Source of the DNA: Psammoneis japonica
Lineage: Eukaryota
NCBI GenBank assembly: GCA_008632985.1
Contig: QPGO01000080.1
Location: forward strand, 372,001 to 393,839
Direction of reading: 5' to 3'
Length of the DNA stretch: 21,839 nt
The notes beneath the pieces are model-generated. The model was not told the origin of the DNA and ran no database searches. It saw only the letters and a program-made list of their open reading frames with translations. Position numbers and translations under genes: made by a program. This document shows, in pieces, positions 1 through 21,839 of this stretch (its first letter is position 1; every line of letters begins with the position of its first letter).

Positions 1-140
1 TCAGGAGTGACGCCGCCTGCTCGTGGGTTCGCCAAGTGGAAACCGCCAAATCGGCACGAGAACCACACATTTTTCTCACTTTTCCCCACTCACACAAGTG
101 GATGCTCACGCGTTGAAACGCGAATGTCTGCTGATGCACC

Positions 141-1292
141 ATGGCCACTGCCACAGCCTTTGCCGCTTGTCTTGCACATTGTGGATGCAATGCGCAGACG
201 CGTGCCTGCACAGCCCATCAAGGCTTTGCTGCTGTTGAGGACTTGGAACAGGTCCCTTTGACAGAAATTGCTGACATGACCAAGGGCATCATGAAAAGCA
301 TGGATGCCACTGCCAACCCCCAAGTCCGCTTCCCACACCTGGTGAATCGCAAGCTCAAGGCACCAGGTGCATGGATTGACCACCGCAGGGCCCAAAACCA
401 AGAGCTGGCCACTGCTCTCTTCACTGGCGACGTTGTTGGAACATGGACGGCACGTCTCATGGAACTGGAACAATTCAAGTCAGCAGACTCAGATGACAAA
501 TCGGCTGCCAAGTCGGCCATGGAGCTCAAGAATCCATGTGGCTGGCCCACCTTCCAAGAGTCACTGGAGACCAAACTGTGCAATCATCGCAGTGCCGTCA
601 CAGGCGTGCCCCTCATCTGCCTGACAAGGGAGCATGAAGACGTCACCGCCGAAATGTTGGCTGCCACCTGCACCATCATTGACGAGGACCTCATTGCCAC
701 TGCTCGACTTGCAGGAGCTCAGCACATGCAGGACAGGCAACGCCTGTGTGATCTCTTGAAGAAGTCAGTGACAGGGGGGCCCGGATGGGCTTTTGTCAAA
801 CCTTCCAATCGCAATCGCAATGGTTGCACTGCTTTCTTTGCACTTGAGAGGCAGGCAGAAGGATCGGCTGCCGCCACCACCCGAAAAAAACGTGCTGCTC
901 ATGCACAGATTGCCACTGCGGAAGCACACTGGATGGGGTCGATTCACTTTCGACCAGTGCGTTCAACGCCATCAAAAGGCTCACAACAACTTGTCTGAGC
1001 TTGATGAACCAGCAGCCGAGACCAAGAAGGTCTCTGACTTTCCAAAGGGCATCTCCGACCCCAGGTTGGAAACTGGTGAGAGTGCAGTGGACGGTGACCC
1101 GATGAAGCTCACAGATTTCGAAGCATGCCAGCAGCACATGAAGACTCTGGCAGAAAATGCAAAGAACCACAATGCTGACACTTGTGGAATCGCGTCCATC
1201 AAACGCCACAACAACCGGTGCAGAAACCCTGGCGGAAAGCGCCAACCTAAAAAGGACAAGCCCAGGATCCGGGCAGGCCATTGTCCTGTTGA
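141..1292 (+). pseudogene. gag: Ty1/copia (diatom CoDi-like) gag relic, frameshifted near 920, 3'-truncated
   Basis: ORF 141-998 continues into ORF 793-1386 after a frameshift. Motifs GVPLICLTR, GPGWAFVK..RNG..AFFAL and GRFTFDQCVQRHQKAHNNL..LDEPAAETKKVSDFPKGISDPRL match recalled diatom copia gag once C/H are read as Y. Ends abruptly at the gypsy fragment. Confidence 0.72.
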
Positions 1293-2275
1293 TCAAACCA
1301 TCCGGTTGCTGGATCAATCATTGTCAAACATTTCAGGACTGGGGATTTCTTCTTTCCCTCATGACACATTTTGTATGGTCCAATGAGATCCACACACAGT
1401 CGTTCCCATGGCACTGATTCTGCACACCCAGGAGGCAAATGTCCGCATTTCTTGTGTTTCTTTTTGAGTTTTTGGCACGTCTCACATCTCGACACGTGTT
1501 TTCGCATGTCTTCACGCAAGGTGGACCACCACAAGTGTTGTGAGATTGTTTCTTCTGTTTGATTTGTGCCAGGGTGAAGAAGGTGTGCATGACACCAATC
1601 TGTCACTGCCTTGCAACGTCTTTGGAATGACGATTTTATCCTTGTGACATGTGAGCACCTAGTCTCGCTTGCCTCCATGAAAAGTCTTTGTGTGAAATGT
1701 CTTGTTGGACAATTTGGAGAGAATGTCTTTTTCCCGTTTTTGTTCTGTGTCAAGAACTTTGCAATTTAATGGAAAGACATTGTCGCAGGATTTTGGCAGG
1801 ACCTTCTCAGCCAACTCTTCTGTGCTGAGGTTTTCCATGGGTTCTGTTTTTTTCACAGCAAGTCAGCCAATCGCATCTGTGACAACATTTGCCTTGCCCT
1901 CGAGGTGTGTCATTTCGGGACTGCACTCTTTTGTCATCAGATGCCAATGCACGACTCTGTCCGTTGTGAAATTTTTGTGTGTGAGATTTTTGTGGTCCGT
2001 GTGCACATTCATCTGTTGGCCAAACAAAGTGTTTCGGAACTCTTTTGATGTCTCCACTGTGGACAACAGCTCTTTTTCCATCACAGCACAATGTGTCTGC
2101 GCTCCATTCAGCTTGTGGCTGTAGAAGGCAATTGGTTGGTTGTTCTGTGTGACAACCACCCCCAATTGAGAATTGCTTGCATCAGCGTGTGTCTCAAAGG
2201 GTGTGTTGAAATTCGGATGTGACAACAGTGTGTCTTTAGAGACAATGAGCTTCTCATTTTTGAAGGCTTTTGCTG
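1293..2275 (-). pseudogene. pol: Ty3/gypsy pol fragment (RNase H, integrase zinc finger, start of integrase core)
   Basis: RNase H motifs PFETHADAS..QLG..PIAFYSHKL..EKELLS..VHTDHKNL..NVVTDA (ORF 1863-2450). HHCC finger H..LHPG...CETCQK and PWERLCVDLIGPY..LTMIDPATGWF (ORF 1247-1753). RH-then-IN order is gypsy-type. Contains stops and frameshifts. Confidence 0.9.
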
Positions 2276-2468
2276 GATCGAAAGCAAAGAATGGCTGGAG
2301 GTGGACAGTGTGAGTTAGAGTTGGCAGTGATTTTGGGTGGTGGGCCGAACTCAGAAAATGCAGCACTTGTGACTCAATCCACTTCAAACTTGGCAAGTTG
2401 CTGTCAATCACAGTGACAAATTTTAACATTTTACTTCCCATTGTCCACACAAATTTCCTGCTTCACAA

Positions 2469-3009: not shown

Positions 3010-5839
3010 GGTTTGTTTGTTCACAATGCACTGTGCTGTTTGGATCTAGAGTGCGTGTTGCCATGAACGGTGACAGCTGCCGCAGATGATGTCAATTTTG
3101 TGGTTGGAAGCTTCTGTGAGAACAATGATGATGTGGTCGTAAAAGATCGCGTGTCACGTGAGACTGGCTTGGAGGTGCACAAATCGTCTGTTGTCACCCG
3201 ATGCGCGCAAACGCGCAGTCGACAAAACGATGAGGTGGGTCACACGCGTAGATCTTCAACGTAAGATCTGTCACGATGTGCTGCACCCGCAAGAAATTTC
3301 ATGGATCGAAATCCACGATTTCCCTCCAACGCAACGTTTCGGCACAACACACTCAGCATCCATGTTCTGTCACACCCAACAACATTGTCACTCGCATTGA
3401 CATCAGACTGTCTCCAAAACATGCCAAGGTCACAGTTGCTTGCATGTGATAAATGCCAGTGCAACTGGAGTGATTGCGAATTGTTTTGTAAAGAGATCAG
3501 TCAGCACTGCATTGCCACCAACACCGCGCATCTGTTGTTGGGTTATTGTCAAGTTCCAGAAGGGAAAAAGCTGGGCACTGTTGCTTTGAGAGCTTCATTC
3601 ATTCGGTTGCTTGGACAGGGATTCAAGGGAAAAGGTGAAATGGTCATTGCAAGACACCATTTTTACCTCAAGTTGATGGAGAGGAGTGGAACAAAAAAAT
3701 CCGCACGACTTGCTGCCAAGGATGGAGCGCAGATCGAGTTGGATCCATTGCCTGGTGCCGGGGGTGCATTTCGAAATGTCACTGCTCCCATGGATTTGGA
3801 TGCTGCCCGCAGCATGGGCATTGTGCATGAATCCAAGCGTGTGTTGCTGGAGGAAATGACGGATGGCACCAACAAGTGTGGATGTGTCCAAGCGCCGCTT
3901 GCCTCCAGAGGGGATGTGCAGGCCATCATAAACTCGTTTTCTTCAGATCGAGTGGCTTGTGCCGTCATCAGGAAATCTGTTGAAGGCAACAACATGGAAG
4001 AAGCAACCGAGGAGGAGGTTTCATCAGCAGCCGCCGGTTGGACTGGCCCATTGGTGCCTTCTGTTGTGCAGCTCACACACAAGCTGAGTGCCTTGCACAC
4101 AGAAATGATCAACAACAGCAGTGACTCCACGGACAACAACAGTGATGAGGAGTTCATGTGCCATCCAGATGTTGTGGCTGTTGTGAAACTGTGCTGCAAG
4201 TGCTGTGACAAGAATGATTTGGTGCCACTTGGAAAAAACAAAAAGAACATTCAAGCACACTTGTGCCCGTGTTCATCTCATTGTCTCAATGAGCACACAA
4301 CAAATTGCACAATGTTTTCCCTTGTCCAAAGGAGAAAAACAGACACCGGTGACTGTGGGTCCTGTGGTGCATGCAACAAATCCGCAAAGTGTCGCAAGAT
4401 GGATTCCAAGTGTGTGGGAGAGATTCACCCATCAACCCGACATGGCTGCTGTTCTCATGAGCAACTGGAGAACAAGATGTCAAGCTTGGCAACCAACTTG
4501 AGGAAAGTTAGAAGCAGATTAAAGTCTTTGCAAAAACTCATGCACTCTGACAAGAGCCGGCTCTGCATTGGCTCAAATGATGACCGTCTGCGTGATTTGC
4601 TGTTTGACTCTGCAAAATGCTGTGAAGACAACAAGAATGATGTCCACAAAAAGATCCCAGAGTGTGTGGTCAAGCACATTGCAGAAATGGAGGGTGCACT
4701 TTTGCCATCAAAGCAGGTGGAAGCCGAGGCATCACAGATGGTGGATGAGCTGCTGGGCGCCATTTGCAACTTTGCCAAGAGAGCCGCAGGAAAACCAAAA
4801 CAATGCAGCTTCTCTCCCCGACTCATGCGGATGGCCTTGGCTTTGTGTGCTGAATCTCCAAAAGGCTGCAAACACTGGAGTGAGTCTGGAATCACACAAT
4901 GCCTTCTGTGCCACATTTGAAGCGAGTCAAGAAAGCCATGGCACCCAAGGAGGGGATGTTCCCAAACATCTGCGGATGGGCTGCAGATGCATTCACAGGT
5001 GGCTGTCACAAGAAGGTGGTTGGCCAATTTTTTTTTGATCAACTCAAGCTGAGATCTGACTTCTGCTTCAACCCAATGACCTCTGTCTGCACTGGCATTG
5101 TTGTTGCTCATGACCAAGACAGGATCCAGCTGGCTGATGAGGTTCTGGCATTGGTGAAGAAAACTGACAAGGAAATTGCCAACGTTGAGCCAGAAGACAA
5201 CCTGGTTGAGCAAGAGAGTGCCAAGGACAGTGGCAAGGAGGAGAGCACAAAAGAGGCCAGCTTCAGCATCTCTCTCTACGTCAACCAGTTTTTTTTGCGA
5301 GTCAGAGCAGCCTGACAGGTGGAACAAAATGAATGTGAACTTGGTCAAGCAAGTCCTTCACTCTGACACAATCAATGAGCTCACAAACCACCTGTCTGAG
5401 GAGCTTCAAATTTTCCACCCAGAAGCTCAGTTTGCCAGCAGTGCAGACAAGACCATGGTGCAGACTGTGACCAATTTGAAGGACCAGTTTGTGAAGATTG
5501 ATGCATCCACTGTGGCCAGCTCTCAGCTGCCTCAATTTGAGACAGCAATGTCAGACCCGTCGCACTCGTGGCAGAGGGGTGTAATTCGGGGTGTAACTTT
5601 GGGGTGTAAAAACGCGCGTCCCCTCAAAAAAAATTACAGCCAACAAATGGGCCTCCAGACGCACGCATTTTTTTCCTGTAATTTTCGTGCGAGAGCAGAC
5701 CGCATTGGCGGCAGAAAACGCGCCGCGATCCGTTTCTCATTGTGTGTCCATCTAAAGACAAAAAGAAACGACTTGTGAGTCAACGACAGACTGCAGTGTC
5801 TGCAGATGCAAAGCTTGACTGCAACGTCTGTCAAGCATC

Positions 5840-6245
5840 ATGAGTGCTGCGGCCTCCATGGAAGATTTTGATCTCTGTGTGATCATTTTGCTTCTGCAGT
5901 TTCTTCTTCTTGAAATCAACACTTTGATGTTGAATGCAAAGCAAGCCCTTGATGAGTTGATTGAGGAAGAGCAACAAAGAAACCGAACCCCTGAACGAGA
6001 GAAAGATCGTCCATCATGGAAATCTCTTTTCAAATCAACGAGCAACAGGGTGTTCCGTCGGATGTTTCGCATGAAAAAGAAATCATTCATGAAACTGTGC
6101 AATGAAGTTTGTGACAAAGTGGGAAAAGACACGTTCTTGCCAGAAGATTGCATCAATGGCACGGAGCACAAGAAGAAGACAGATGCCGCGACAGCATTCA
6201 GGGGTGGTGCAATTCCTGGAGAGATGAAAATTGCCACGGTGCTTT
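5840..6245 (+). pseudogene. 5' fragment of Harbinger/PIF transposase
   Basis: FRRMFRMKKKSFMKLC and IPGEMKIAT.L resemble the N-terminal helical region of Harbinger transposases. Similarity stops before the DDE domain. Confidence 0.62.
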
Positions 6246-6700
6246 TGTTGAAGCATGGCGGCGGCCGCACGAATCGCATCTTTGGGAGTGCGATTTTCCT
6301 GGTGCTTGCTCGTGGTGGAGTGCCAACAATTCTCAAGGTTCAAAATGACCATTGGGATCCCACCGTGCTCGTTGTTGTTCTGGAGCATGAAGACCTTGTC
6401 ATTCTTTCCATGCTTCCAAAGGCTTGGGTGCACCTCAGTGCAGTCTGTGTGTTTCCCAGTGCGAACCAAAACCTTGGCAATGGCATCCTTGCTTCTTGTT
6501 TGGTTTGTTGGAAGGTTGGGAAACCTGTTGGCCTTCTGTTGCTTGCAAAGGGCAGTCAAAAACTTCCCCATTGCAATGTGCTTTAAGGTTTTTGCTTTGC
6601 TCTTTGCATCTTGAACGCCTTCATCTTGAAGACTTGTCATCAGTGAGTGCAAAGTGGGGCACAGCTTCTTGTCTTGAGCTGCCTGGTGTGGCTCGGCCAT
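6246..6700 (-). pseudogene. 5' fragment of a convergent second ORF of the Harbinger-like element
   Basis: ATG at 6700 just inside the right TIR (MAEPHQAAQDKK..). Basic, protein-like composition. Harbingers normally carry a second gene, but no domain was recognised. Confidence 0.4.
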
Positions 6701-9700
6701 GCACGTTTTTACACCCCCAAATTGCACCCCGAATTGCACCCCAATTTCCACGAGTGCGACGGGTCTCAGACGTGATGACTCTTGAGTTTGTCACACACTT
6801 GACAAACATCTACACAGAAATGTTCATGAACAGGTTTGCATGAATCACCCCCAAGAACATTCAGAAGTGGAAGGACAAGGTGGCAGCGACACTTGAGCAC
6901 CTTCATGATTGGCGCGCAGAGCAACTGAAGGGCAAAGAGGAGCTAAAGTTGAAAGACTCTGAGTCTAAAGAGTGGCAAAAGTGGTTTCCATCAAGTCAAA
7001 CTTGCCACGCACTGCATGTGAGTGTTTGCGGTTTCATGGTTTGTGTGGAAACTGTGTGGAAGGTGGCGGGAGACAAGGTTTTCATCCCATTCTTGCACTC
7101 CAACACCAGCATTCTGGAAGCACTGTTTCCCTTGTCCGGCAACACAAAGGTGACACGCTGCTGAGTTGCCTGAGCACAACAGGAATTGTGGACTCGCAAA
7201 AGGCATTTGCAGCCTTGGATGGAAATCCGATGTGCGACAGCGAAGATGTCACCAGAGCCAAGTCAACGGGCAACGACCTCACCAATCACACAGACAAACA
7301 AAGACACGCCATGGTGAACCAATGGCTGCAGGATCGGAGTGCCAGGAACTCAACTCACACCCTGGATTTGTCCACTGGACAACAAATCAAAACAAACAAA
7401 TCAAAAGGCAGTCAAGGCGCAAAGTTGGTGCTGGACAGAATGAACACGGAAAGCAGGACATGGCATGACAACATGATGTTGAGCGACGTTGACTTCATGG
7501 AGCATGCCAAGTTGGCAGTTGGCACTGAAGAAGAACATTGCTTTCAAGCACTGTGTCGACTGAACAAAGCTGAACAAAAAGCCTTCCATGAAGCCTGTCA
7601 GTGCCTTTGGGGAGAGATGGAAAAAGGATGTGAGAAGTTTGGAAGGCGCGGAGTTGAGCGGTCCTTCATGGTTCAAGTGTGCAAATTGCAAACAGACATG
7701 GAAAGGATGGGCACTCACCATTCCAGGCTCCCAAACACTCTGCAGGCAGAAACGGCAGAAGATGGCAAGCCCAAAAAGCTGTCGGCATTCCACGTCCTGA
7801 TTGTCAACTTCTTTGCCTCTTGGTTTGCAGAAGAATTCACACAAACTCTGGACAATGCCATGGAGGATGGAATCTTCCAAGAACCCAGAAGCGTTGATGA
7901 AGCAGTCGAGAAAGCCACAGCAAAAGACAACAAGAAATGGGAAGCAATTGCCTCATCTGCAAATGCCATTTCTCAGGAGGACACAAACAAGGAGGTGACG
8001 TGGTTCCCAGGCTGGGCAACAGCGAACGCACGCAATCATTTTGAAGCAGACTCTGAGAGTGGAAAGAAAGCAGCAGCAATGCTTGATGAGATGGTGACAG
8101 ACAAAATGGAGTTGAGAAATGCAGCGCCATCCATTCAAGAAATGGTGCATCCCAAGATGCTCAAGCTCAAAGACGAGTCTCGCGGCCGCGCCGGAAAAGA
8201 GGATTGCACGTTGGTGTCCCCCAAGTTTTTTGCATTCGGGTTGTGATTGCTTGCTGCAATTCGTGGTCACTTCAATGAAGCCACAACAAAGAAGCTGGGG
8301 GAGGACAGCGCAACTGCAGCATGCAACAAACTCACAGACGAGGCCGTGGAATTGCTGTGGAATGACTTCGCAGAGTCGATTCCTGATGCAGTGTATGATG
8401 CTGCAAGCAATGATGAAGCCGTGCAGCAACTGTTCGTTTGCATTGTCCAAAAAACATTTGCAGCTCGAGCATCACGAGTGGTTGACTCGTTTCGGGAGGA
8501 ACACACAAGCAGATGTGCATCAAAAGTGGTGGATGCTGCATTGCGGGAGGGACCAAAAGTCATGGCAAAAAGGGGAAACAAAAAAGACGATGTCAGCAAA
8601 GAAGAACAAACAATGACAACAATGCACAGTTCAATCTTACCTTGCCATTCATTGTCACACATTAAGAAGCAACAAACGGCTGTCCAAACCATGCCACAGC
8701 TCATCCGCAAGAACAGCACAATGCTGCGGACGCCTGCTCACGACCACAAATGCACGATTGACGTTGGTTTTTGTCTTGTTGTGCTGCAAGCATTGTCCAT
8801 GAGCATTGTCACGTCAAGCCTTGTTGACCACCCCCTTGTGTCGACATGGAGACAAGGCTGTGCAGCCACCAGCACCAGTCAAAACCACAATGCTCTTGCC
8901 TGCCCATCCCACTGCAGCTCCCGAAGCAACATCAGCTTGTGCCAAGGACAAAAGGCATTCTCAGTGCTGGCGGCATCTTGGCTGGAGCTCAAATTGTGCG
9001 TGTGACCATGGTGGCTGAGGAGACATCCCCCAGCTGTGTGCAAGCAACTGATTGTTTTAATGCACTCAGGTGGGTGTTGTTGTTGGTGCATTGAAACATT
9101 TGCAAATGAGTGGAGCATTGTTTTCCAATCAACAGTGGTTTGATCACAAGTTGGTGACACTGCACGAAATTTGTGAAAATGTTGCCATTTTTAATGCACG
9201 TGTTCGCCTGTGGCTGGAGCATGTCAGCCATTGGGAAAAACAATCTGCTTGGGTGCCAAGTCTGATGGAATTGAGAGAGATGATTCCAAGAGCTCCTGGG
9301 TGCAGTCTTCTTTGAATTGATGATCTTTTGCACTGGGACGGTTGTTGAATTGCCCAAGGACAGATGGTGCTCCTCCATCATCTCCATCATTTCCAGATTT
9401 CATTCACAGCATGTTGGCCCCTCCAAGTGTCAAGCCCCCTGTTGCTCCAGCTGCACTGGTTTTGGCTCCAGAGGGAAACCCAACTGCACCTGGATCACCT
9501 GAAGCAAAATTGGTTGTTGACAATGATGACCATTTTCCCAAACCTCCAGACTTGCTGGGTCCTGCTTGGATGTGCTCTTGTGGAGCTGTGCACATGCCAG
9601 ATCATCATGGCAATGAAGGCAACAACCATCACAACTGTGACAGACACACCTTCAAAGGTGCTGCTTCTTTTGTTTTGAGCTCATCATGTTGGTTCAATGA

Positions 9701-9975
9701 TTCATGCAATGTTTGCTGATCTCAACTTGCACATGCATCCTCCATTGGACATTTTTGTGAGCAACAAGAAGACTCATGATCCTGATGTTTTTTTGCATCA
9801 TAGAGCAATGGCAGGACTGCATGCCAAAGAGTTAAAAAAAGCTGTGAATTCAGAGAGATCAATGATTTAATGTGACACAGCTCATTTGCTCTGACACTGT
9901 GCATGTTGGTGCCTCCTCAGGGATCATGCCAATGTTTTGACCAGCACTTGGTGGGTGCCCAAGATCAAGAGATGC

Positions 9976-10372
9976 CTTGATGGATGTGTCTCAAGAAGGC
10001 AGTGCTGCAAGTTTGCAGTGCAGGTTTTGCTGCTGGATTGTAGAGCTGCAAAGATCAAAATGATCCAGCACATGTCAAGAGTCAGCCTGGCTCTGCATTT
10101 TGACCACTGGCAGAGCACAACCCAATGATTTGGGCTCCCAAGCTGCAAACTGAGATTTTGCACTGTCCATGCTCCAGGCAGAGCACATCCCCTTGTCCAA
10201 GGTGATGTGAGTTCCACCAAAAATGAAAAAGAGCTCATCAAGGAAGTGGCTTTTTTGATGAGCATTGACAGGCTTGATGGGTGTGTCTCAAGAAGGCAGT
10301 GCAAGGTTGCAGCGCAGGTTTGCTGCTGGATTGTGAAGCTGTGAAGATCAAAATGATCCAGCATGTGCCAAG
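9976..10372 (+). repeat. Imperfect ~100-bp direct repeat (9976-10079 and 10273-10372)
   Basis: Shared CTTGATGG.TGTGTCTCAAGAAGGCAGTGC...TTTGCTGCTGGATTGT..AGCTG..AAGATCAAAATGATCCAGCA. Confidence 0.9.
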
Positions 10373-11720: not shown

Positions 11721-12049
11721 AAAAAATGGGTGTGTGGAAATGTTGCTCTGTTGCCAAAATAAAAAAGATGTCACAAAACAGACAAATTGTGAGTGAAATT
11801 TGCTTCCCTTTTCCAACTGAATCAAACAAAATTTTTGGAGAGCATGGGAAAAACAGAGATTGCATTTGAGAAAAAAGATTGAGCATCACCAAAAGAGAGC
11901 TTGCAGCCAGCTGAGTGGCTGGATCATGTGCAGACACATGTGGCTGGGGTGTGACAACTTGAACAATTTTGGAAAATGTGTCCTTTTCTGTTGGAGAAAC
12001 ACAAGTTGTGTTCAGGAATGGTCAATTGAAATCACACAGGAAATGGGTT

Positions 12050-13830
12050 CTCACAGCCTTTCTTCAACTCAAGGGTTTTCTGCCTTTTTTTCTCCATGTC
12101 AAGGGTTTCCTTTTCCTTCCTTGTGTTGGGTTCCCATGTCAGGGGTGCTTGGCATCCCAAGTGAGTTGTCCCCAAAATTCCCTTGAGTTGGCATCCCTCC
12201 ATTTGGTTGCATCATGCCAGACATTTTTTGTTTGATGACAATTTCTTGATGTCACATGATGTCATCACTGCCACAGTGTGAAGCACTCTTCTCACTGCTC
12301 TCACCCCAGCTGCTGATGTGACCATCACACTGTCAGACCATGATCACCACACTGTGGTGCCATCACAATGTGTTGGATGACATCGCTGGCACACTGTCAA
12401 ATTCATTGCTGTTTTGTGGTCTGGCACTGCCAAAGACATCAGCACCATGTCATCAGACATTTTCTTGCTCATCCACCTGGATGCATTGTTTCACATCAGC
12501 ACCATCAATGTCGGCGCTGTCAAATTGCATTGCTCATTGCAGCAAGGCAATGGGAACCTCCCTTGCTGGCTCAGTTTTCCTTGTTGATGCAACTCCCCAG
12601 CCCCAGTGTCATTTTGGGACAGACATCTGAGAAGCACTGTCTTTCACAATGGCAGGTTGACATGACATTTTGTGGTGTTGATGCCAAGTTGTTGAAGAAG
12701 CTCTTGACTGTCCTCCTCCAACTCCAGAGGAAACAGTCACTCTGGATCAGTGTCATGTGTGGTTGAGAAATGAAATTTCATGCAGAGAAAAAGAAACTTG
12801 GACTCATTTGCTGCACAAAGCCAACAAAAATGTCAAATCCAAAAACACGCACTTGTGCCAAGGCACTGTTGCTGAGTGTGTGAAGAAAAGAAGGGCTCAC
12901 CATGCCAAATGTCACCATCATTGTTGACCAAGAATTGAGGAGGCAAAGATGAAGTCAAGCAAGTTTTTGGCCCCATTGGCAGCAACAGCCTCCAATGTGC
13001 AAAAACTTCTGCTGCACATGAGCCCCCAAAAGGGTGTTGCATGGCAGGGGAGAAGCACAGGCAGGTGACACCAATGCTGAAAACAATGTGTTGTTGGTGG
13101 GCTTGAAGAGCATCCTGAATTTTATGATCCAACATCTGTCAAGAAAGATGAGATGCGTTTGCAGGATTCTGGGGGCTGTTGACCTTGAGGGGTGCCTTGT
13201 TGAAGAGCAATGCTGCCATTGATTCTTTGGTGGGATCAAGGGTTTCCAGTGGGATGAGTTCTGTGAAGATGCACTTTCTCAACAGATCAACAACATTGTC
13301 CTTGGATTGCGCATGTTGTGCATTGTCCAAAATTGATCTAGATCAATGACGATGCTGCCGCAAAGGGCATTGAAGATCTGAGTGGTGTCATCATTGCATC
13401 CGTGTGGTGCAAACACTGTGGAGATCTTGATGATGCCATCACAAGCCTGTTTCTTTGGAGTGTCAGGTGCCATGGTTGATGAGGTGCACAAAATGTTTGG
13501 TCACACAGGATTTTGGGGGCTGTCAACCTTGAGGGGTGTCTTGTTAAAGAGCAATGCAACCATCAATTCTTTGGTGGGATCAAGGGTTTCCAGTGGGATG
13601 AGTTCTGTGAAGATGCACTCCCTCAACAGATCAACAACACTGTCCTTGGATTGTGCATGTTGTGCATTGTCCAAAAATTGATCCAGATCAATGATGACAC
13701 CACCACAAAGGGCATTGAAGATCTGAGTGGTGTCATCATTGGTGCAAACACCATGAAGATCTTGCTGATGCCATCTTGAGCCTGTTTCTTTGGAGTGTCA
13801 GGTGCCATGGTTGATGAAGTGCACAAAATG
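12050..13830 (-). pseudogene. Highly degenerate coding relic of unknown product
   Basis: Protein-like minus-strand stretches (FTELIPLETLDPTKE..ALLFNK.PLKV; QFDSADIDGADVKQ) broken by TGA stops (possibly CGA->TGA) and frameshifts. Boundaries approximate. Confidence 0.3.
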
Positions 13831-13838
13831 TTTGGTCA
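13162..13838 (+). repeat. Diverged tandem duplication, ~344-bp unit (13162-13505 and 13506-~13838)
   Basis: Copies align throughout; copy 2 lacks about 9 bp (CATCATTGCATCCGTGTGGTGC vs CATCATTGGTGC). Many differences are TG/CA/TA/CG interchanges. Confidence 0.95.
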
Positions 13839-14232
13839 TGCACACGCAGAAACCTGGCATTGTTCTGCAGAGCCTGTGTGCTGATGAAAAAGTTGGGCTC
13901 AGGATCAAAAATGGTGGCCTGCTTGTTCAGCTCACAAACTGAACAAATCAAAATTGGGTTTTTGTTGCAGAGAATGACAGGATTTGAACAGGATTTAGGT
14001 GCACGCGAAATGTCGTGCGCTGTTTGGTTTGCTGCGCACAGTTTTGTGTGCTTTGGTTCCGCGCGTTCGCACACAATGCAGTTTGCTTTCGAGCCACAAG
14101 GCTCACAAGAACAATGACAGTAGCCCGATTGTACCGACTTGCACGTCTTTCGGCTCCTGCAACGGTCTCTGAGCGGAGACTCATCTGCTGTTTAGACAGC
14201 AGCAAGGAGTTGTTGTTTGAACTCTTGCCATT

Positions 14233-14358
14233 TGCCTTCAATTTCTGTCAGAGAAACAAGTGACCTGACAATGCCTTCAATTTCTGTCAGATTGACAGTC
14301 TTGCTCATTGTCAACCCATTGAGCAACCGCCATCGTCGTCGTTGATTTACCGACGACG
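14233..14358. repeat. 20-bp direct repeat followed by two hairpins
   Basis: TGCCTTCAATTTCTGTCAGA at 14233-14252 and 14272-14291; TTGCTCA..TGAGCAA at 14301-14326; CGTCGTCG..CGACGACG at 14334-14358. Confidence 0.8.
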
Positions 14359-14448
14359 CCATTTCAATTCTGCGTGCACCTCCGTGTGTGTTCTACATGC
14401 ATCGGCAAGTCTGCGCGCATTCAATGCCAGGCATCAGCAGGATTTTAA

Positions 14449-16378
14449 CGGGGACCCCCCGCAAGTCTGTACAACCATCCGATGGAGCATTTTTTGCGAG
14501 TTGAACGCAACTCTTCTCGTGTTGTCACCGCGGTGACCTTCCTTTGAAGTCTGTTGCACACCAACCTTGTTGTGGCTGTCCTGCTGGCGATCCTTTTCGA
14601 TGAATTGTTTGTTCCACTCCTGTTGCTGACATTTGGTGAAAAGGATCGCCAGCAGAAAGTGTTTTGCAACAACAACAATTGCGTCTCAATGTCACCGTCA
14701 CCAATCAGCAGCGACACCCCAAACGCCTCCAAGCCAACTCAAATGGAAGAAAAAGCCGACAAGTGGAAGCATGCAATCCCGGCAGATGATGCATGGGGCC
14801 AGCATGGAAGAAAACCAGGGTTTCAGTGCCATGGGTGAGTCGCAAAATGTCAATGTTCCTTGTCAGTGTTGCATCAACGTCTCGCATCTCACAAACGTTT
14901 GTTTGGTCGTTGCAACTGTCCTGCTGTCAATGCTTTCACATAAGTCGTTTTTTCTGCTCCTGTTGGTGACATTTGATCGAAAGGATTGATGGCAGCAGGT
15001 GTTTTTATGACAACAATTGTTTGTCTCTATGTCGCCGTCGCCAAGCCAGCGACACAAAAAACGCCTCCACCAGGTCACCCAAATGGAAGGTAAAGCCGAT
15101 GGAAAGAAATGAAGGAAGAGGCGCAAGCAAGAGACACAGAATGCCCCAAGCTGTTCCTTTGTTGACAGAGAAGTTTTGAACATGAAAATCACCACAAGCT
15201 CTGTCTTTTGTGGATTGGTGGCAACAAACAAACATGCATTCAGTCAGAGGCGCCGGAAACAAAAAAGGAAAGTCAAGATGTCTCCTGTGGGATGTTCACA
15301 ATGCCTGCCCATCAGAGAATGACAGTTTGAGGGTTTGAAACATGGTCTGAGCTGGGACAACTGCAACTAGAAACACTGCTGTTTGTCAGCATGCACAGCA
15401 TTCGCCACAACTCTGCATTCCAGGTTTTGATTCTGTGGCTCTCATCCCAGGTTGTGTCCAACAGAAAGACTCCACAGAGTGTTACATTGGTGTCTTGTGA
15501 TGGCAATTGCTACAGTGCTTGAGCAACTCCTGCACAGAGAAACACCCAACACACCAGTCGTGTTGCGTTCTCGTGGATGGGCTGACTGTGGTCGTTGTCG
15601 AACAGAAACACTCTACAAAGCATTGCGTTGGTGTCTTGTGATCATGTGTGAACAGTTGTTGCTGTGCTCAAGCAACTCCCACACAGAGAAACCGCTCTCA
15701 AGCGTCATCCTGCCGTGTGCCGGCACGCAAGGGCATGCTGCTCCACCGCAGCTCATTTGCAGAAGCAATCGACTGATCAACCAATTTCTTGCCCGATTCT
15801 TTGGATCCGCCATCATCAACAGTCTCGGAATCTGACTCAATGTGACGTGTTTCCGAATTGCCAGAAGCATCGGGAGAAGCATGACCTTTGTTCTTCTTGC
15901 ATGTGCGAGTGGCCTGCTTCTGACAAAGTCTGAATTGCCTCCACCACTGCTGCACCGTCCTTTTCCCTCGCGTTGCTGAGGAGATGTTTGTTCCCAATCC
16001 TTTGAGGAAGACACCCTTCAAAATTCTGTGCATCACAGCAACTGTGTTGGAGTTCTTCACCCGCCAGAGCAACAGCATGGTGGCACTTGCCTCTGCAGTC
16101 GTTTGCTGGGAGGGCAACTGAATTTGATGCGCCTTAGAGGCAGATGAGACATTGGACTTGTGGAGTCCTGGAAAGCCACCAGATTGCAGTGACTTCAGCA
16201 TGAGGTCACTGTCCATCCATGCACATGGAACCGCAGCTGGAAAAGCGGCAATAAGAAGCCACACGGCCTCGACAATCTCCACAGTTGGTTTGCTGTTTTT
16301 GTGATTAAAAAAACATCACGCAGCAACCACGGAGCTGAAGGAGCTACGGACAACGTACAGACTTACGGGGGGTCCCCG
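14449..16378. mobile_element. Non-autonomous TIR DNA transposon (1930 bp) flanked by TTAA
   Basis: 24-bp TIR CGGGGACCCCCCG(C/T)AAGTCTGTAC at 14449-14472 and 16355-16378 with one mismatch. TTAA at 14445-14448 and 16379-16382. A TA target with a 1-bp longer TIR fits equally well. Confidence 0.85.
14576..15099 (+). repeat. Diverged ~184-bp direct repeats within the TIR element (14576-14759, 14916-15099)
   Basis: Colinear blocks CTGTCCTGCTG, CTCCTGTTG.TGACATTTG, AAAGGAT, CAGCGACAC, AACGCCTCCA, CAAATGGAAG, AAAGCCGA at a 340-bp offset. Confidence 0.85.
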
Positions 16379-16436
16379 TTAACGTCACCGTCAAGTCTCC
16401 TTGCCGCTGGACATCTGGATTGATTGTGCTGCCTTT

Positions 16437-17016
16437 TGTCGCTGAAGACATGCATTCAACGGTCATGTCCAAGTCTATCCTTGATCCTCATCCCTTGACA
16501 TGCCCATTCAACGGTTAACGGTCAAGAACCCCACATGTTCAAGGATCTTCGTCGCTGAAGACATGCACACACACATGTCTTCACGGCCAAGAACTTGCAC
16601 CGACTCTTTGGACTGCGGCTTTGCTGCCACTCTACAAGCACACCAAGTCCACTGCACCTGATCTGCCCGGACCACTGGTGCTCTGCAGTTCTGCCAGGTC
16701 CACGAGGACGACTGTGAGAGCAAGCAGCCGTGGTTGCAGCCTGCATTGGGGCGAGGGTGTTTTCCCACGTTTGTTCGTTCGTCCACAGTGCCTGGCGCCT
16801 GCATCAACTGGCCAGCCTGATTGGGAAATCCAACCAACATAAAACAAGAACGGTTCGGGGTCTTGTCCACCTCTGGTCAGCTCACCTGCAGGGGTTTGCA
16901 ACCCGCCACTCCGCTCGCAAGCAACCCAAAGCGCCGCTGGCTGCGGGTTCGGACGTGCCGGCACAACTCTGCAGACCGGATGGGAAGTTTAGCACTCAAC
17001 AACGAATGGGGTGACA
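16437..17016 (+). repeat. Tentative 5' LTR of the downstream copia element
   Basis: TGTCGC...GTGACA inverted termini about 140 bp upstream of gag; internal repeat GTCGCTGAAGACATGCA (16438, 16551). No second LTR or recognisable PBS to confirm it. Confidence 0.3.
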
Positions 17017-17053
17017 CAGCCCGGCGACTTCTGATTTTAAGATAGTTCAAGAT

Positions 17054-17085
17054 TTCAAGTCAAGTCCATTTCAAGTCAAGTCCAT
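17054..17085 (+). repeat. Perfect 16-bp tandem duplication in the copia leader
   Basis: TTCAAGTCAAGTCCAT x2, among further TTCAAG units. Confidence 0.9.
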
Positions 17086-17157
17086 TCTCACCCAAGTTTC
17101 AAGTCCACCTTCGCGTCCCAACCAGAATCGCTTGTTCTGACACCGCTTTTGTCTGCC

Positions 17158-20100
17158 ATGGTTCTCACTTGTCAGCAACAAACTGATGGTTTCAAGCACC
17201 TTGTTGGAACCGTGCTTGCCCAAGGTGCTGGAAGCCCTCTTGGTTTGGCTTTGACCCACGACGGCACGGACTCGCATCAAGAACTCTTCACGTTCACACC
17301 GCCCCAAATCGACTCGCTTGAGTGCGACAACGGCGCTGATGTGATCCCTTTGCCCCGTGGTTGTAAGAACATGTTAGCAGCTCTAGTTAGTCTGTACATT
17401 GTCAAAGCACACAAAGGTCTTGATGTTGCCAATGACTCCTCGTTGTTCACGCATGAGGATTTCCTTGCCTGCTGCCTCAGCCCCGACTGCATGTCTTCTG
17501 TGTCCGTCGGCAGCTCGCCTCTTGCACCTCCGCACGTCACCAACCCGACCAAGGCACGTGACCTGGTGTGAGACTTCAAGCGAGGTGTCAAGCGTGACCC
17601 CACTGCTTTCACGGCTCTCAAATCCGACAAGCAGTGGCACACTTGGCACACCTCACTTGTGGCACAAGCCCGTGCCCAAGACGTTGAGTGCATTCTAGAC
17701 TCGTCGTACAAACCGACCAGCCCCAAAGACAAACTGCTCTTTGCTGAACAGCAAAAGCACATGTTCGCCGTCTTCGAACGCATCCTTCTCACTGACAAGG
17801 GCAAGGCTCTCATTCGCGAAAATGTGGGTCTTCTGACGCCCAGACCGTCTGCCGCGCCTTGTCCGAGCATGCGCTCGCCTCCACCCGCGCATCCATCGAG
17901 TCCTCCACCTTGCTCACGCACCTCACCACCGCACGTCTTGGTGATGGCACTTGGAAAGGTCTGACCCACGGGTTCATCCTTCATTGGCAGGATCAGTTGC
18001 GCAAGTGCGAGGCACTCATCCCGGCCAGTGACCACTTCTCTGAAGGACAGAAGCGTGTCATGCTCGAGAATGCCGCACATCCTGTCGAGGAACTCCGCGC
18101 CGTCAAGAACCAAGCTGATCAGCNGATCAGTTGCGCAAGTGCGAGGCACTCATCCCGGCCAGTGACCACTTCTCTGAAGACAGAAGCGTGTCATGCTCGA
18201 GAATGCCGCACATCCTGTCGAGGAACTCCGCGCCGTCAAGAACCAAGCTGATCAGCATTGCACGCAGGTGGCAAGAGCCTCACACATGATCAACATTGTG
18301 GCTTGCTCCTCTCCCGGCGGCCCAATGCAACAGCACGTTTCAACCCAAGACGACACCTCGAGCTCCCCAACGCGCCACATGCGCACACGACGTCTGCTCC
18401 GAGGAACCGTCCGACGATGTGTTCTACGACATTGACAGCGACGTTGACGTCCTTCAAGCCAATGCTGCCTGCACCCGCGGTCCCAGCCTCACCGGTGTCC
18501 AATGGAGACGTCTCCCTCCCGACCACCAACGGCTCTGGGATTCGTTGCCCGATTCCTCCAAGGCGATCATCCTTGAGCATTCTCGTCCGCCTCCCCGCAA
18601 CCCGCGAGCCAGCAACTGCCATGAGTCTGTTACGGCCAACCTTCACGACCAACGCCTTGGGAGTGACGGTGATGTCAACTTGTCCAACACGACTCCTGCT
18701 GACTCTGGTGACTCCGCTCCACATGTGGACGCCACTTCGGACAATCCCATCCTGGCGCACCTCACCAAGCGCAAGCCACTGCCACCCGGTGATCTGCAAC
18801 GTCTGTTGTCTCCTAACCAAGCCCCCAATGCCAGTCGACCGGGGCCATCCGCCGCTTCCTCTACCCCGCCAGCTTCTGCAGATGACATGGAACTTAACGG
18901 CCGCACTTGCCGCCGCGTTAACAACCACAATGTCATTTGCTCTGCCTCTGCTCATCGCTCCACACGCACTGGCGCTCTAGTCGATCGTGGGGCCAACGGC
19001 GGCATTGCTGGCGACGACGTTCGCGTCATTGCACGCACCTCTCGCCAAGTCGACGTTCAGGGCATTGACGATCATCAATTGGTGGACATCCCCATTGTCA
19101 CCGCTGGTGCCGTCATTGAGACCCAGCGTGGTCCCGTCATCGCCATCCTCCATCAGTGCGCATGCACGGGAAAGGGCAAGACCATCCATTCCTGCGGCCA
19201 GCTCGAATGGTGCAAACAGGATGTCAACGATCGCTCTGTCAAGGTGCCCAACGGCTTGCAACGCATTGCCACTCCTGATGGCTATGTCATCCCCATTGAC
19301 ATCAAGGCTGGCCTGCCTTGTGTTGCCATGCGACCTTACACTGACGCCGAATGGGACACCCTGCCCCATGTCATCCTCACCGGTGATGACACATGGGACC
19401 CTTCCGTCCTCGATCACTCTGTCACTGACGACGACCAGTGGTGCGACGCGATCTCTGACCTACAGGACGATCCCACTGCCAACCTGTTTGACGAATGCGG
19501 CAACTGCCGTCACCGTGTCGTTGTCAACGAGACCATCTTGTCCGCTTCCTTGTCTGCCGATCACGCGTCCGCCCTCGATGATCACCTCATTCCGAACGAC
19601 GACGTGTTCTACGAGTGTCATCTGCATGCGATTGACCCCAAGGGCGATGACGTTCCACCTCCGGAGCGCACTGTACAGCCCAAGGACCCCCCCTTCGAGT
19701 CTCTTCGGCCTTGCTTTGGCTTCCTACCTGCCGATGCGGTCCGTCGTACTTTTGACTGCACCACGCAGTGCGCCCGCATGCCCGCCGGTACACACCTTCG
19801 CAAGGCCTGCAAATCACCCAACCCCGCCCTTAATGTGCACCGCCGCAACGAGCCTGTCGCCACTGACACCGTTTGTGCCGACACCCCGGCCGTCGACTCT
19901 GGTTGCACCAGCGCCCAACTGTTTGTTGGCACCGAGTCTACCGTCACTGACGTCTACGGCACTAAGACGGACAAAGAGTTTGTCAACACACTCGAGGATC
20001 AGATCCGTGAACGTGGTGCCCCATCCAAACTCATTAGCGACCGTGCTCAAGTTGAGATCAGCAACAAAGTGCTCGGGATCCTACGCGCCCTCTTCATCTC

Positions 20101-21493
20101 CAGCTGGCAAAGTGAGCCTCACCAGCAACACCAAAACTTTGCCGAGCGTCGACACCAGACCGTGAAGCGCATGGCGAACACTGTCATGGATCGTTTTGGT
20201 TCGCCCGCCCACACATGGCTGCTGGCGCTCATGTGCGTGTGCTTCACACTCAACCACACAGCGTCCCCACGTCTCCACTGGCGCACGCCCCTCGAGACTC
20301 TCACTGGCTCCACCCCGGACATCAGCCCATTGCTTCGCTTTCACTGGTGGGAACCCGTGTGCTTCCACCTCGATGACTCCGATTGGCCGTCCGAATCCCG
20401 TGAGTTGCGTGGACGCTTCGTTGGCATTGCTGAGCACGTCGGCCACCAGATGACCTTCAAGATTCTCTCTGACGAGACTCAGAAGATCCTCTGCCGGTCC
20501 AACGTATGATCCGCTGCCACCGATCCTGCCGTTCGAAACCTGCGTCTTGATCCTCCTGATGGGGAGCCACCTGAACCCATCATCAAATCTCGCCATGACG
20601 ACAACCCCGTCGATTCACCTGATGGGGAGATCAGGACACCCAAGATGCCAGTTTTCGATCCGCAAGACATCATCGGACGCACCTTCCTCATGCAGCCACA
20701 AGAGGACGGACAACGCCACAGAGCTTGCATCGTCAAGGCCGTCGAAGACCACGAATGGAAAGTGAACGGCAACCCTGAGCTCACTGGGTTCATCTGCTCT
20801 GTCAACAACGACGAATGCGAGGAAGTCCTGGCCCACAACGACATCATGAATCACATTGAGCAAGAAGACGAAGACACCACTGTTTGGAAATTTCGATGCA
20901 TTGTGTCACACGAAGGACCTCTGAAGCCTCATGACCCAACCTGGAAAGGCTCAAGCTACAACATCATGCTTGAATGGGAAAGTGGGGAGATCACGTCCGA
21001 GCCTCTTGCCATCATCGCCAAGGACGACCCTGTCACCTGTGCCATCTGTGCACGAGAGAACGGACTTCTCGACACTGATGGCTGGAAGCGGTTCCGCACC
21101 ATCGCGAGGCGCCAGAAGAAGCCACTCCGCATGGCCAACCAAGCCAAGCTTCACTCCTTCCACACTGCACCTCGCTACAAGCACGGATGCGAAGTTCCCC
21201 GGAACTGCAAACACGCCATGTCACTAGACGAACACAACGGCAACCGCAAATGGGGAGACGCAACTAATCTCGAGATGGACCAACTCGATGAATATGAAGT
21301 CTTTCATGACTGCGGGCCCTCCGAGTCTTCCACTCCTCCTGCGGGACACAAGAAGATCCGAGTGCACCCAGTGTGCGACATGAAACACGACGGCCACCAC
21401 AAGGCACGACTCGCAGCCGATGGGCACCTCACGGACGCACCCATCGACAGTGTCTACTCCGGAGCAGTCTCCCTCCGTGGCCTTCGGCTGATG
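17158..21493 (+). pseudogene. gag-pol: Ty1/copia (CoDi-like) gag-pol: gag, protease, integrase, start of RT; truncated within RT
   Basis: gag FKRGVKRD..AQARAQDV..LTDKGK; protease LVDRGANGG (about 18977); integrase ATDT / ISDRA / AERR; RT KKIRVH...KHDG.HKARL.ADGHLT..VYSG.VSLR. PR-IN-RT order. In-frame TGA at 17569 and 20507; frameshifts near 17825 and 18260-18320. Confidence 0.93.
17991..18256 (+). other. 133-bp duplication around a single N (probable assembly join)
   Basis: 17991-18123 is repeated at 18125-18256 with a 1-bp deletion; N at 18124. Confidence 0.85.
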
Positions 21494-21839
21494 GACGCGT
21501 TCCAGGTCTAGGTGGGACCACGCACTGCTGAACTGTGACATCGATGGTTTTTTGAATCGCGTCGTATGTCGCGCACGTACATTTCTACGTGATTTTGGCG
21601 AAATTTTGCATCATTTTACAGTGCAATTGTCAGGCGATCCATTCAACAACTTTTAACATTTTTTTCTTCTACGCCATTCTCGAGTGTCTCAAGAATGGTG
21701 CAGGGCAGGCGCATTGTCCAAAACTTCGAGTACGAACAGAGATGTGTGCACTGCAAACTTGGCCGTTTGTTTTGTGTCAAAGACAAATGCATCCATTAAC
21801 CAGAGTGCGAACTACAGAGCTCGCACGCAGAATTCTACG

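Follow-up and report, generated by a model that had tools for sequence, protein, structure and literature searches.

A nest of dead transposable elements, probably of diatom type, with near-complete TpA loss that points to DNA-level conversion to TpG and CpA

Introduction

To our knowledge, no cellular process erasing a single A:T dinucleotide from chromosomes was known before 2026, and we know of no characterised natural enzyme that acts on chromosomal DNA at TpA to saturation. Recently, mutation-accumulation lines of Bigelowiella natans were reported to show hypermutation of TpA to TpG/CpA in integrated DNA of NCLDVs and virophages (bioRxiv 10.64898/2026.01.13.699255; all statements on this work refer to the accessible part of the preprint). 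In these lines, 231 of 302 de novo mutations fell in two viral regions and 230 were A>G or T>C, all of them on TpA according to the authors, who propose an ADAT2-like adenine deaminase (bioRxiv 10.64898/2026.01.13.699255). TpA-depleted coding sequences of B. natans are enriched for DDE endonuclease and reverse transcriptase domains, the NCLDV region has a rho(TpA) of 0.45, and clusters were delimited by rho(TpA) of at most 0.43 together with rho(CpA+TpG) of at least 1.52 (bioRxiv 10.64898/2026.01.13.699255). In the literature outside subscription journals, on diatoms or elsewhere, this preprint is the only report of the same phenomenon that we found, and it has overtaken the novelty implied by a sequence-only reading of the locus described here.

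Several better-known processes share part of this outcome. Fungal RIP likewise leaves dense, dinucleotide-specific transitions on both strands, mobile elements riddled with missense changes and a compositional scar; its enzymology is that of the RID/DIM-2 cytosine methyltransferase family, and its C>T changes, mainly at CpA, create TpA. RIP requires duplicated sequence and a sexual phase. The A-to-I products of ADAR, ADAT and TadA, and of TadA-derived adenine base editors, are read as A>G, and ADAR prefers a 5′ U or T; in tRNA, A34 is always preceded by U33. Unlike the process considered here, the natural enzymes of this group act on RNA, and no such gene lies in the DNA analysed. Decay of 5mC yields the same two products, TpG and CpA, and diatom transposons are CpG-methylated (PMC9998398, accessible part).

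Depletion of TpA across the window

The window, meaning the whole stretch of 21,839 nt that was analysed, contains 126 TA dinucleotides where about 1333 are predicted from base composition (obs/exp 0.09), and the product dinucleotides lie above expectation (TG 1.69, CA 1.57). As the sequence-only reading had stated, AA, TT and AT are still common (1.21, 1.20 and 0.89); obs/exp over the whole window is 1.04 for TC and 0.57 for CG, and G+C is 0.51. GC-biased gene conversion or a general AT>GC pressure was rejected because AA, TT and AT are untouched. The two TA-free stretches located earlier by eye (1-1247 and about 6968-8393) proved correct on recount, the full set being 1-1247, 6967-8393 (1428 nt), 10653-11759 and 11761-13122; the chance of meeting no TA in 1247 nt, where 76 are predicted, is about 9e-34. 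rho(TpA) is 0.00-0.28 in all 21 non-overlapping 1-kb windows and TA obs/exp is 0.00-0.21 in all 11 defined segments, while the baseline from 80 related copia loci in metagenomes has a median of 0.71 (range 0.27-0.97). When the B. natans thresholds are applied, with a pooled CpA+TpG formula assumed, the 1-kb windows fall below the TpA value in 21 of 21 cases and satisfy both values in 17 of 21, namely the first 17 consecutive ones.

RIP would leave TpA in excess and lower G+C. Here TpA has been destroyed and G+C raised (TpA 0.09, CpA 1.57, G+C 0.51), which upholds the earlier opinion that RIP is not responsible.

The window has 146 frames that run for 75 codons or more from stop to stop. Long false ORFs arise in TpA-free DNA because TGA is its only stop; such DNA therefore yields spurious ORFs on annotation, and its degraded transposon proteins evade Pfam.

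Contents of the window

All sequence in the window that could be identified is mobile DNA, and no host gene was found in it (Table 1). Among its 18 long ORFs, Pfam at E<=0.01 recognised two gypsy domains only; relaxing the cutoff to E<=5 gave nothing meaningful, and another 104 ORFs, each 75 aa or longer, had no match.

Table 1. Features of the window, with strand, TA obs/exp where given and supporting observations
Feature	Position	Strand	TA obs/exp	Observations
Continuous TpA-depleted, TpG/CpA-enriched tract	1..21839	.	0.09	Composition counts; extends past both window ends
Repeat, unclassified	1..1246	.	zero TA	Summed contig depth ~5100-6600 vs ~110-120 in lowest-depth parts
Gypsy-type LTR retrotransposon fragment	1247..2462	-	0.11	Pfam and Ty3 alignment
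P-element-like DNA transposon, left part	3373..5550	+	0.06	19 relatives, best E 5e-26; tblastn 3373-5544
TIR-bounded element (1215 bp) nested in P-like element	5551..6765	.	0.10	Inverted repeat I1; ~65-nt TIRs
P-like element, right part	6766..8600	+	0.04	Relatives P0257, P0253 align at 6859-7149, 8202-8600 (tblastn); includes the 1428-nt TA-free stretch
Low-copy unclassified DNA	8601..13161	.	0.04	Contig depth ~115-270
Tandem repeat, two copies of ~340 bp	13162..13838	.		Families D1, D2, D5
Very high-copy repeat, first part, continuing at 16378	13975..14431	+		Depth to ~179,000; loose ends at 13975
Insertion (1946 bp), unclassified	14432..16377	.	0.13	Missing from other copies
Copia-type (diatom CoDi-like) LTR retrotransposon	16378..21839	+	0.21	Runs past window end, which falls inside the RT region
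Exact 133-134-bp duplication flanking the window's sole N (18124)	17991..18256	+		D4, D6; 100% identical

The gypsy identity given by the sequence-only reading was confirmed by Pfam, with an RNase H at 1863-2462 (RT_RNaseH, E 2.5e-21) and an integrase zinc domain at 1247-1765 (Integrase_H2C2, E 4.3e-12); the repeat to its left, at 1..1246, has no Pfam match. The copia identity was likewise borne out by homology. Although Pfam gave no match directly on the copia ORFs of the window, 210 long polyproteins carrying PF07727 are related to them (best identity 56%, best E 9e-257), were placed at 17158-21493 by tblastn and link the element to RVT_2-bearing Gag-protease-integrase-RT polyproteins. The copy has frame breaks and one in-frame TGA. 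Of the 120 copia relatives listed, nine bear eukaryote names; all nine are diatoms, Bigelowiella not being among them, and the ESM Atlas offers diatom-labelled clusters; judged from these proteins, the transposons are probably of diatom type, the relatives, at 37-47% identity, being those of transposons rather than a host marker. The repeat at 13975 probably represents the copia element's 5′ LTR, with an approximate left boundary, and contigs of the sequencing runs X2 and X4 connect 14431 to 16378 and bypass the insertion, in which Pfam has no match. The duplication around the N is probably an assembly join and not biology.

The P-like identity is moderately supported: besides the homology in Table 1, Pfam found PF21787 (TNP-like_RNaseH_N) above cutoff in two of 12 relatives scanned and Tnp_P_element below cutoff in one, and the ESM Atlas returned only weak P-element leads, below 0.9, for 3265-4920. 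An X1 contig connects 5550 directly to 6766 without the nested element, whose TIR extent was determined by lengthening the inverted repeat through reading of the flanks and whose arms differ as TA vs CA at two places. A Harbinger element had been named at this place. PIF/Harbinger hallmarks are a DDE_Tnp_4 transposase and a 3-bp TWA target duplication. A TIR-bounded element is indeed present, and none of the searches confirmed the Harbinger assignment: the ORF at 5819-6586 has no relative among proteins of 140-447 aa, Pfam at E<=5 gave no relevant match in the element, and DDE_Tnp_4 homology was not found.

The low-copy stretch (CG obs/exp 0.12, TG+CA 1.88; no Pfam match) agrees with an X1 contig of 4017 bp and depth 112 that matches 9241-13251 with 0 mismatches. 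Since about 4.5 kb of the window is low-copy now and still has a TA obs/exp of 0.04, targeting by repetition is not demonstrated, and the label "repeat-targeted" given to the process earlier gained no support. In terms of present-day copy number, the high-copy copia element retains more TA (0.21) than the low-copy parts (0.04).

Direction, strand and context of the changes

The direction of change can be read from tyrosine codons, TAY, which TpA conversion turns into TGY (Cys) or CAY (His). At 26 Tyr columns conserved among 40 copia relatives, the window reads C 12, H 4, Y 8 and F 2, whereas the corresponding columns of 77 control loci read C in 9 and H in 43 of 2676 cases; 16 of 26 vs 52 of 2676 is a difference at Fisher p = 1.8e-20, the highest fraction in any control being 0.11. 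When 120 relatives are used instead, the window has C 11, H 4, Y 7, F 3 and W 1 at the 26 columns, and non-Tyr residue classes are retained in 74-100% of copia columns, mostly at least 82%. About 70% of the expected TA has gone from this copy, yet 92% of its other conserved columns are intact. None of the 77 related environmental copia loci shows the signature, and the control locus lowest in TA (L001, 0.27) was rejected as a second case, because it keeps Tyr at 14 of 19 columns, C standing at none and H at one. We also rejected selection against UpA in RNA, since it does not account for Tyr>Cys in catalytic motifs. The motifs quoted in the sequence-only reading (HQCAC, FDECGNC, TTQCAR, DTVCAD, CAICA, ERRHQ, RLAADG and SGAVS) occur in the window translations, and the relatives shown have Y (or V) at the matching positions.

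The same pattern extends to the other elements. In the Ty3 alignment of the gypsy fragment (E 1e-5), Ty3 tyrosines stand opposite C, C, H and N (C or H at three of four), and of 97 pairs in the P-like element with a Tyr in the relative, the window residue is C in 24, F in 10, H in 5 and Y in 5, the remainder being spread over other residues. Both retrotransposons and DNA transposons are thus affected, as had been claimed.

Other genomic copies were compared in the sequencing runs X1-X4, which contain the stretch and represent one sample of one study. The sequence-only reading had proposed tabulating substitutions by dinucleotide context. Among the best-supported 40 of 1320 differences, all 12 G>A changes relative to the window lie at a window TG and all nine C>T changes at a window CA; therefore the other copies have TA at these 21 of 21 sites, and because TA is retained in copies from the same runs, the depletion is not uniform. 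Only one of the nine A>G differences in this set is at AA. In the whole X1 difference table, transitions number 1079 and transversions 235. An APOBEC-type process was rejected because C>T is the wrong direction.

Artefacts at TA or at a modified base, arising in sequencing, base-calling, polishing or assembly, have to be weighed here. The only runs that contain the stretch come from one sample and one study, X1 is no support from an independent platform because it may be the assembly's own data, and the exact duplication flanking the N indicates that the assembly is not flawless. However, X1 contigs from an independent assembler match the window over 4017, 433 and 667 bp with 0, 0 and 1 mismatches, and TA is evidently readable in these contexts, because other copies in the same runs show it at window TG/CA sites. 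Each site is consistently TG or CA, where miscalling on one strand would leave about half of the reads in each state, and Tyr>Cys/His in an otherwise intact polyprotein makes biological sense. We therefore regard an artefact as highly improbable.

RNA A-to-I editing of transposon transcripts by an ADAR-like enzyme, followed by reverse transcription into DNA, would fit the 5′ U/T preference attributed to ADAR in the Discussion of the Bigelowiella preprint (bioRxiv 10.64898/2026.01.13.699255, accessible part), as well as the excess of coding-strand TG over CA (12 vs 4) at copia Tyr codons. It would be confined to sequences that pass through RNA and to the transcript strand; in the window, however, the P-like transposon, the TIR element, the tandem repeats and the low-copy DNA are depleted equally or more, the strands are about equal overall (TG 2202, CA 2240) and AA is spared. 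This explanation, which had already been dismissed because it would be strand-biased and would not become fixed in DNA transposons, retains hardly any probability.

Involvement of both strands, together with A:T transitions after a 5′ T, would also be expected if a Pol-eta-type Y-family polymerase were repeatedly recruited to silenced DNA and misinserted G opposite T during error-prone repair, the Pol-eta hotspot being the WA motif. AA is part of WA but is undepleted (1.21) and accounts for the single A>G change in nine mentioned above, and such near-complete change of a single dinucleotide, with the other conserved columns 92% intact, is far above the specificity of polymerase errors. Error-prone repair is accordingly a very unlikely source.

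Taken together, the copia Tyr columns, the 21 of 21 copy differences and the Tyr-to-Cys/His changes in the P-like and gypsy elements establish a DNA-level, TpA-specific A:T-to-G:C process on both strands, on top of ordinary CpG decay, in agreement with the A-to-G change at TpA on either strand that had been proposed. Because TpA reads identically on both strands, A>G and T>C are indistinguishable. All the results would equally suit T>C at a modified thymine, such as an oxidised or hydroxymethylated uracil made at TpA by a TET/JBP-type enzyme and pairing with G, and symmetry between strands is natural for a symmetric modified site. Dinoflagellates carry 5-hydroxymethyluracil in place of T, with a preference for TpA and TpC. 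The window, however, gives no sign of modification, TpC is undepleted (TC 1.04), and the sole study of the phenomenon prefers adenine deamination, as a hypothesis (bioRxiv 10.64898/2026.01.13.699255, accessible part). We consider thymine as the mutated base unlikely, though it is the strongest of the rival explanations.

The 126 surviving TAs are followed by T in 8% of cases (30% in 80 loci) and by A in 37% (22%), and among tetranucleotides TTAA is enriched 3.6-fold and ATAT is at 0.08-fold. Trinucleotide gains relative to control loci were rejected as a measure of product context, being confounded by CpG decay and differing element make-up. Strand-coordinated tracts were absent at the 500-bp scale, since the TG-vs-CA skew shows no greater dispersion than that of 80 control loci (ratio 1.45 vs 2.15). 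A processive single-strand deaminase might leave such tracts.

CpG decay alongside TpA loss

CpG loss is a distinct process in its own right and is most marked in the oldest parts of the window. CG obs/exp is 0.11-0.12 over 8601-13838, and TA and CG obs/exp are correlated over 43 bins (Spearman 0.54, p = 2e-4), in keeping with a gradual build-up of the changes. The two losses are separable because the copia element at 16378-21839 has a CG obs/exp of 0.92 and a TA of only 0.21; TpA is lost throughout, also where CG is 0.92-0.99. CpG decay can neither remove TpA nor convert TAY codons to TGY/CAY, and the earlier rejection of 5mC decay as the cause of TpA loss therefore stands. Ordinary CpG decay, not separated in the sequence-only reading, accounts for part of the excess of TG and CA.

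The two tandem copies differ by seven TG<->CA double differences, two of TA vs TG/CA and three of CG vs TG/CA, besides eight other transitions and three transversions. At sites seen only as TG-vs-CA differences, the ancestor may have been TA or CG, both decays giving TG/CA.

Comparison with Bigelowiella and proposed explanation

Our main reading, to which we assign a probability of roughly 0.8, is that the window consists of a nest of mobile elements, now dead, that has undergone DNA-level TpA-to-TpG/CpA conversion of the Bigelowiella natans type in addition to CpG decay. On this reading the nest belongs to a nuclear genome and is made up of a copia element, part of a gypsy element, a P-like DNA transposon interrupted by a TIR element, and unclassified remains, and TpA conversion in it was probably far faster than background substitution. 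Compared with the accessible part of the B. natans preprint, the mutation class, the TpA context and the involvement of both strands are shared, as is the footprint of low rho(TpA) with high rho(CpA+TpG). Unlike in B. natans, the transposon relatives are diatom rather than chlorarachniophyte, viral genes are missing from the targets, which comprise LTR retrotransposons and DNA transposons, depletion approaches saturation (rho 0.09 across 21.8 kb or more vs 0.45 in the NCLDV region), strong CpG decay coexists, and a 3′-neighbour bias is visible that we did not find described in that part of the preprint.

Adenine after T may be deaminated by an enzyme that targets silenced or foreign DNA, the product being hypoxanthine, which would be read as G. 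Such a deaminase would act on whichever strand is exposed, with a putative 3′-neighbour bias in which T is favoured and A disfavoured, and repeated hits over time would push a region towards zero TpA. This would remove all Tyr codons together with TAA and TAG stops, and the elements would thus be killed.

More tentatively, and at somewhat less than even odds, a diatom (a stramenopile) may possess a RIP-like defence of opposite chemistry, in which a TpA-specific DNA adenine deaminase empties transposon islands of TpA. If so, together with the rhizarian Bigelowiella, the system would be widespread or ancient in the SAR supergroup, and a natural adenine deaminase of chromosomal DNA, hitherto isolated by no one, would be indicated.

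Conclusions

The same signature is found here at saturation, in both transposon classes and in what is apparently a diatom; if this is correct, the phenomenon extends beyond one species and transposons are a main target. rho(TpA), combined with Tyr>Cys/His changes in transposon proteins, provides a simple screen for further hosts, and comparative genomics over such hosts could locate the enzyme, predicted to be a natural editor of adenine in DNA.

Composition of the window

Nothing but mobile or unclassified DNA was found in the window, and the elements that could be delimited are listed in the table. In addition, 19 relatives (best E 5e-26) were found for an ORF at 3265-4920, and among the 12 of these that were scanned, two contain TNP-like_RNaseH_N (P-element type) and one a sub-threshold Tnp_P_element HTH. 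Since alignments of the relatives cover 3373-5544, 6859-7149, and 8202-8600, a P-like DNA transposon of about 3373-8600 could be recognized. Contigs from four sequencing runs of one sample (X1-X4), which include many other repeat copies, were aligned to positions 1-20000. An X1 contig lacks the TIR element and joins 5550 to 6766; the sequence-only reading had assigned this element to Harbinger, a family supported by no search. The unclassified insertion within the high-copy leader (or LTR) of copia is absent from other copies, as X2 and X4 contigs join 14431 to 16378. Pfam scans of ORFs in 1-1246 and 8601-13838 found nothing, and both parts are unclassified, the latter being low-copy in the sequencing run compared. 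An exact 133-134-bp duplication (17991-18256) flanks the single N of the window (18124) in the copia gag region and breaks the copia reading frame; it looks like an assembly join rather than biology.

Mobile elements delimited in the window
Element	Positions	Strand	Features
copia retrotransposon	16378-21839	+	210 long polyprotein relatives, best 56% identity, with PF07727
copia high-copy leader	start near 13975		split by a 1946-bp insertion (14432-16377)
gypsy fragment	1247-2462	-	RT_RNaseH and Integrase_H2C2 (Pfam)
TIR element	5551-6765		1215 bp; TIRs of about 65 nt; nested in the P-like element

Extent of TpA depletion

The window has 126 TA dinucleotides compared with about 1333 predicted from base composition (obs/exp 0.09), together with a strong surplus of TG (1.69) and CA (1.57) and a CG value of 0.57. 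The observation from sequence alone that AA, TT, and AT are still common was confirmed by ordinary values (1.21, 1.20, and 0.89, respectively), and the two TA-free stretches it had described proved to be exact (1-1247 and 6967-8393), with two more exceeding 1.1 kb. The probability of finding no TA over 1247 nt is about 1e-33 on base composition. Depletion extends over all 21 1-kb windows (rho(TpA) 0.00-0.28) and all 11 delimited segments (TA obs/exp 0.00-0.21). It is not a trait of the copia family, since 80 metagenome loci coding for related copia polyproteins have a median TA obs/exp of 0.71 (range 0.27-0.97). The lowest of these control loci, L001 (TA 0.27, TG+CA 1.52), was ruled out as a second case of hypermutation, as its conserved tyrosines are kept (14 of 19 Tyr, no Cys, one His).

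Loss of TAA and TAG leaves TGA as the sole stop codon, and 146 frames run for at least 75 codons from stop to stop in 21.8 kb, in all six frames and often overlapping. Degraded copia ORFs have no Pfam hit, yet match real polyproteins with E values of 1e-250. False calls by gene finders are to be expected in such DNA.

Direction and specificity of the change

That TA came first and that TG or CA arose from it is shown by four independent lines of evidence. Tyrosine is the only amino acid whose codons (TAY) contain TA in every case. In columns of the copia polyprotein with at least 70% agreement among relatives, the window keeps the residue in 92% of non-Tyr columns, whereas the 26 conserved Tyr columns contain 12 Cys (TGY), 4 His (CAY), 8 Tyr, and 2 Phe. 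The same test in 77 control loci (three with too few columns were left out) gave 9 Cys, 43 His, and 2217 Tyr in 2676 columns (Tyr to Cys/His, Fisher p = 1.8e-20; highest control fraction 0.11). When all 120 relatives were used, the Tyr columns of the window were 11 Cys, 4 His, 7 Tyr, 3 Phe, and 1 Trp. In the P-like element, 97 aligned pairs with Tyr in the relative, which are not independent, as one column may be covered by more than one relative, include 24 Cys, 10 Phe, 5 His, and 5 Tyr in the window, the remainder being various other residues. Cys, Cys, His, and Asn stand opposite Ty3 tyrosines in the gypsy RNase H.

Differences between the window and other copies were examined for the 40 best-supported positions (1280 more exist). 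Within this set, all 12 G>A differences lie at a TG of the window and all nine C>T differences at a CA, which places TA in the other copies. Eight of the nine A>G differences lie at CA, and at three of these (16883-16884, 16907-16908, and 17297-17298) the adjoining C differs too, with T commoner than G, so that some copies must have TA there and others TG, as would follow if one ancestral TA gave rise to two products. One ancestral TA is thus now TA, TG, and CA across the family, and many copies, not the one in the window alone, have mutated independently. The other five A>G differences at CA and one T>C at TG correspond to CpG in the other copies, i.e., ordinary CpG decay in the window.

The arms of the TIR element, which differ as TA versus CA at two places, are a neat internal example of mutation at the ends of a DNA transposon. 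The left arm (5551-5617) retains three TAs within repeats of a GGGGTGTAA-like unit, and the right arm (6701-6768) retains one, with CA at the remaining two. The two tandem 340-bp copies show seven TG-versus-CA double differences, two of TA versus TG/CA, and three of CG versus TG/CA.

Possible sequencing artefact

An artefact of sequencing or base-calling is disfavoured by several observations, with the caveat that X1-X4 all stem from a single sample, could be the data behind the assembly, and are no proof of platform independence. Across long TA-free stretches, Logan contigs of X1 agree with the window over 4017 bp (9241-13251, 0 mismatches, depth about 112), 433 bp (0 mismatches), and 667 bp (1 mismatch). 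A blanket miscall is excluded, since TA is read in these runs wherever other copies have it at the homologous positions, and a strand-specific, modification-dependent miscall predicts a TG/CA mixture at each site, whereas one clean state was found.

Properties of the process and CpG decay

Both strands are affected equally (TG 2202, CA 2240), and TG/CA skew varies locally no more than it does in the control loci, so that long strand-coordinated tracts are not seen. TA loss outpaces background change: the copia element is otherwise well preserved (CG 0.92), but its TA value is 0.21 versus 0.71 in the family, a loss of about 70%. TA loss also accumulates, as TA and CG values fall together across bins (Spearman 0.54, p = 2e-4) and the parts with the strongest CpG decay have essentially no TA. 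Targeting may be guided by repetition, chromatin region, or foreignness; the most TA-depleted parts are those that are low-copy today. The copia leader insertion is lower in TA (0.13) than copia although it is younger at the site, and it may already have been mutated on arrival.

At the 126 surviving TAs (strands pooled), the base 3′ of A is T in 8% (30% in controls) and A in 37% (22% in controls), and TTAA is enriched 3.6-fold while ATAT is at 0.08-fold, implying that removal is most efficient at TA followed by T and least at TA followed by A.

Conventional CpG to TpG/CpA decay is a separate process, which peaks at 8601-13838 (CG 0.11-0.12, and 0.00 in some 500-bp bins) and there, on top of TpA loss, raises TG+CA to 1.9 times expectation. 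It fits the CpG methylation known from diatom transposons (PMC9998398) and adds to the TG/CA surplus, yet is unable to remove TA.

Nature of the process

These data show a TpA-specific A:T-to-G:C process that acts at the DNA level on both strands and affects both retrotransposons and DNA transposons as well as non-coding repeats, which upholds the proposal of a context-specific DNA mutator of mobile elements that is neither RIP nor 5mC decay nor RNA editing. Edited RNA copied back by reverse transcription does not account for the DNA transposons, and Pol-eta-type synthesis is disfavoured because AA is spared. In the mechanism we infer, the adenine after T would be enzymatically deaminated in silenced or foreign DNA. 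Mispairing of G with a modified thymine at TpA would leave the same sequence, since TpA is its own reverse complement, but we consider it improbable.

Comparison with Bigelowiella natans

Full-text literature searches found a single report of the signature, a preprint on Bigelowiella natans dated 2026-04-14 (bioRxiv 10.64898/2026.01.13.699255). It reports that 231 of 302 new point mutations in mutation-accumulation lines fell in integrated NCLDV and virophage DNA, and 230 of the 231 were A>G or T>C, all on TpA according to the authors. It also describes 124 clusters of TpA-poor, CpA+TpG-rich 1-kb windows and 324 TpA-depleted CDS enriched in DDE endonuclease and reverse-transcriptase domains, and proposes an ADAT2-like candidate deaminase. 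The cluster thresholds given there are passed by the first 17 consecutive 1-kb windows of our window, and the TpA threshold by all 21, so that this kind of process has already been described and the earlier suggestion of a wholly new system has been overtaken (bioRxiv 10.64898/2026.01.13.699255).

Several differences from the B. natans case, as far as the preprint text describes it, are evident. Transposons of both classes are hit here rather than integrated NCLDV and virophage, depletion is deeper (rho 0.09 over at least 21.8 kb versus 0.45 in the B. natans NCLDV region), CpG decay occurs alongside, and a flanking-base bias is visible. The host lineage, judged from transposon relatives and not from a host marker, is very likely not Bigelowiella and is probably diatom. 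Among the 120 near-length copia matches listed (identity at most 68%), all nine eukaryote-named relatives are from diatoms (Nitzschia inconspicua, Phaeodactylum tricornutum, Cylindrotheca closterium, and Nitzschia sp. Nitz4) and none is from Bigelowiella, though its proteins are public; the nearest ESM Atlas clusters are diatom-labelled as well. The window represents a second instance of the process, saturated, transposon-centred, and probably in a diatom.
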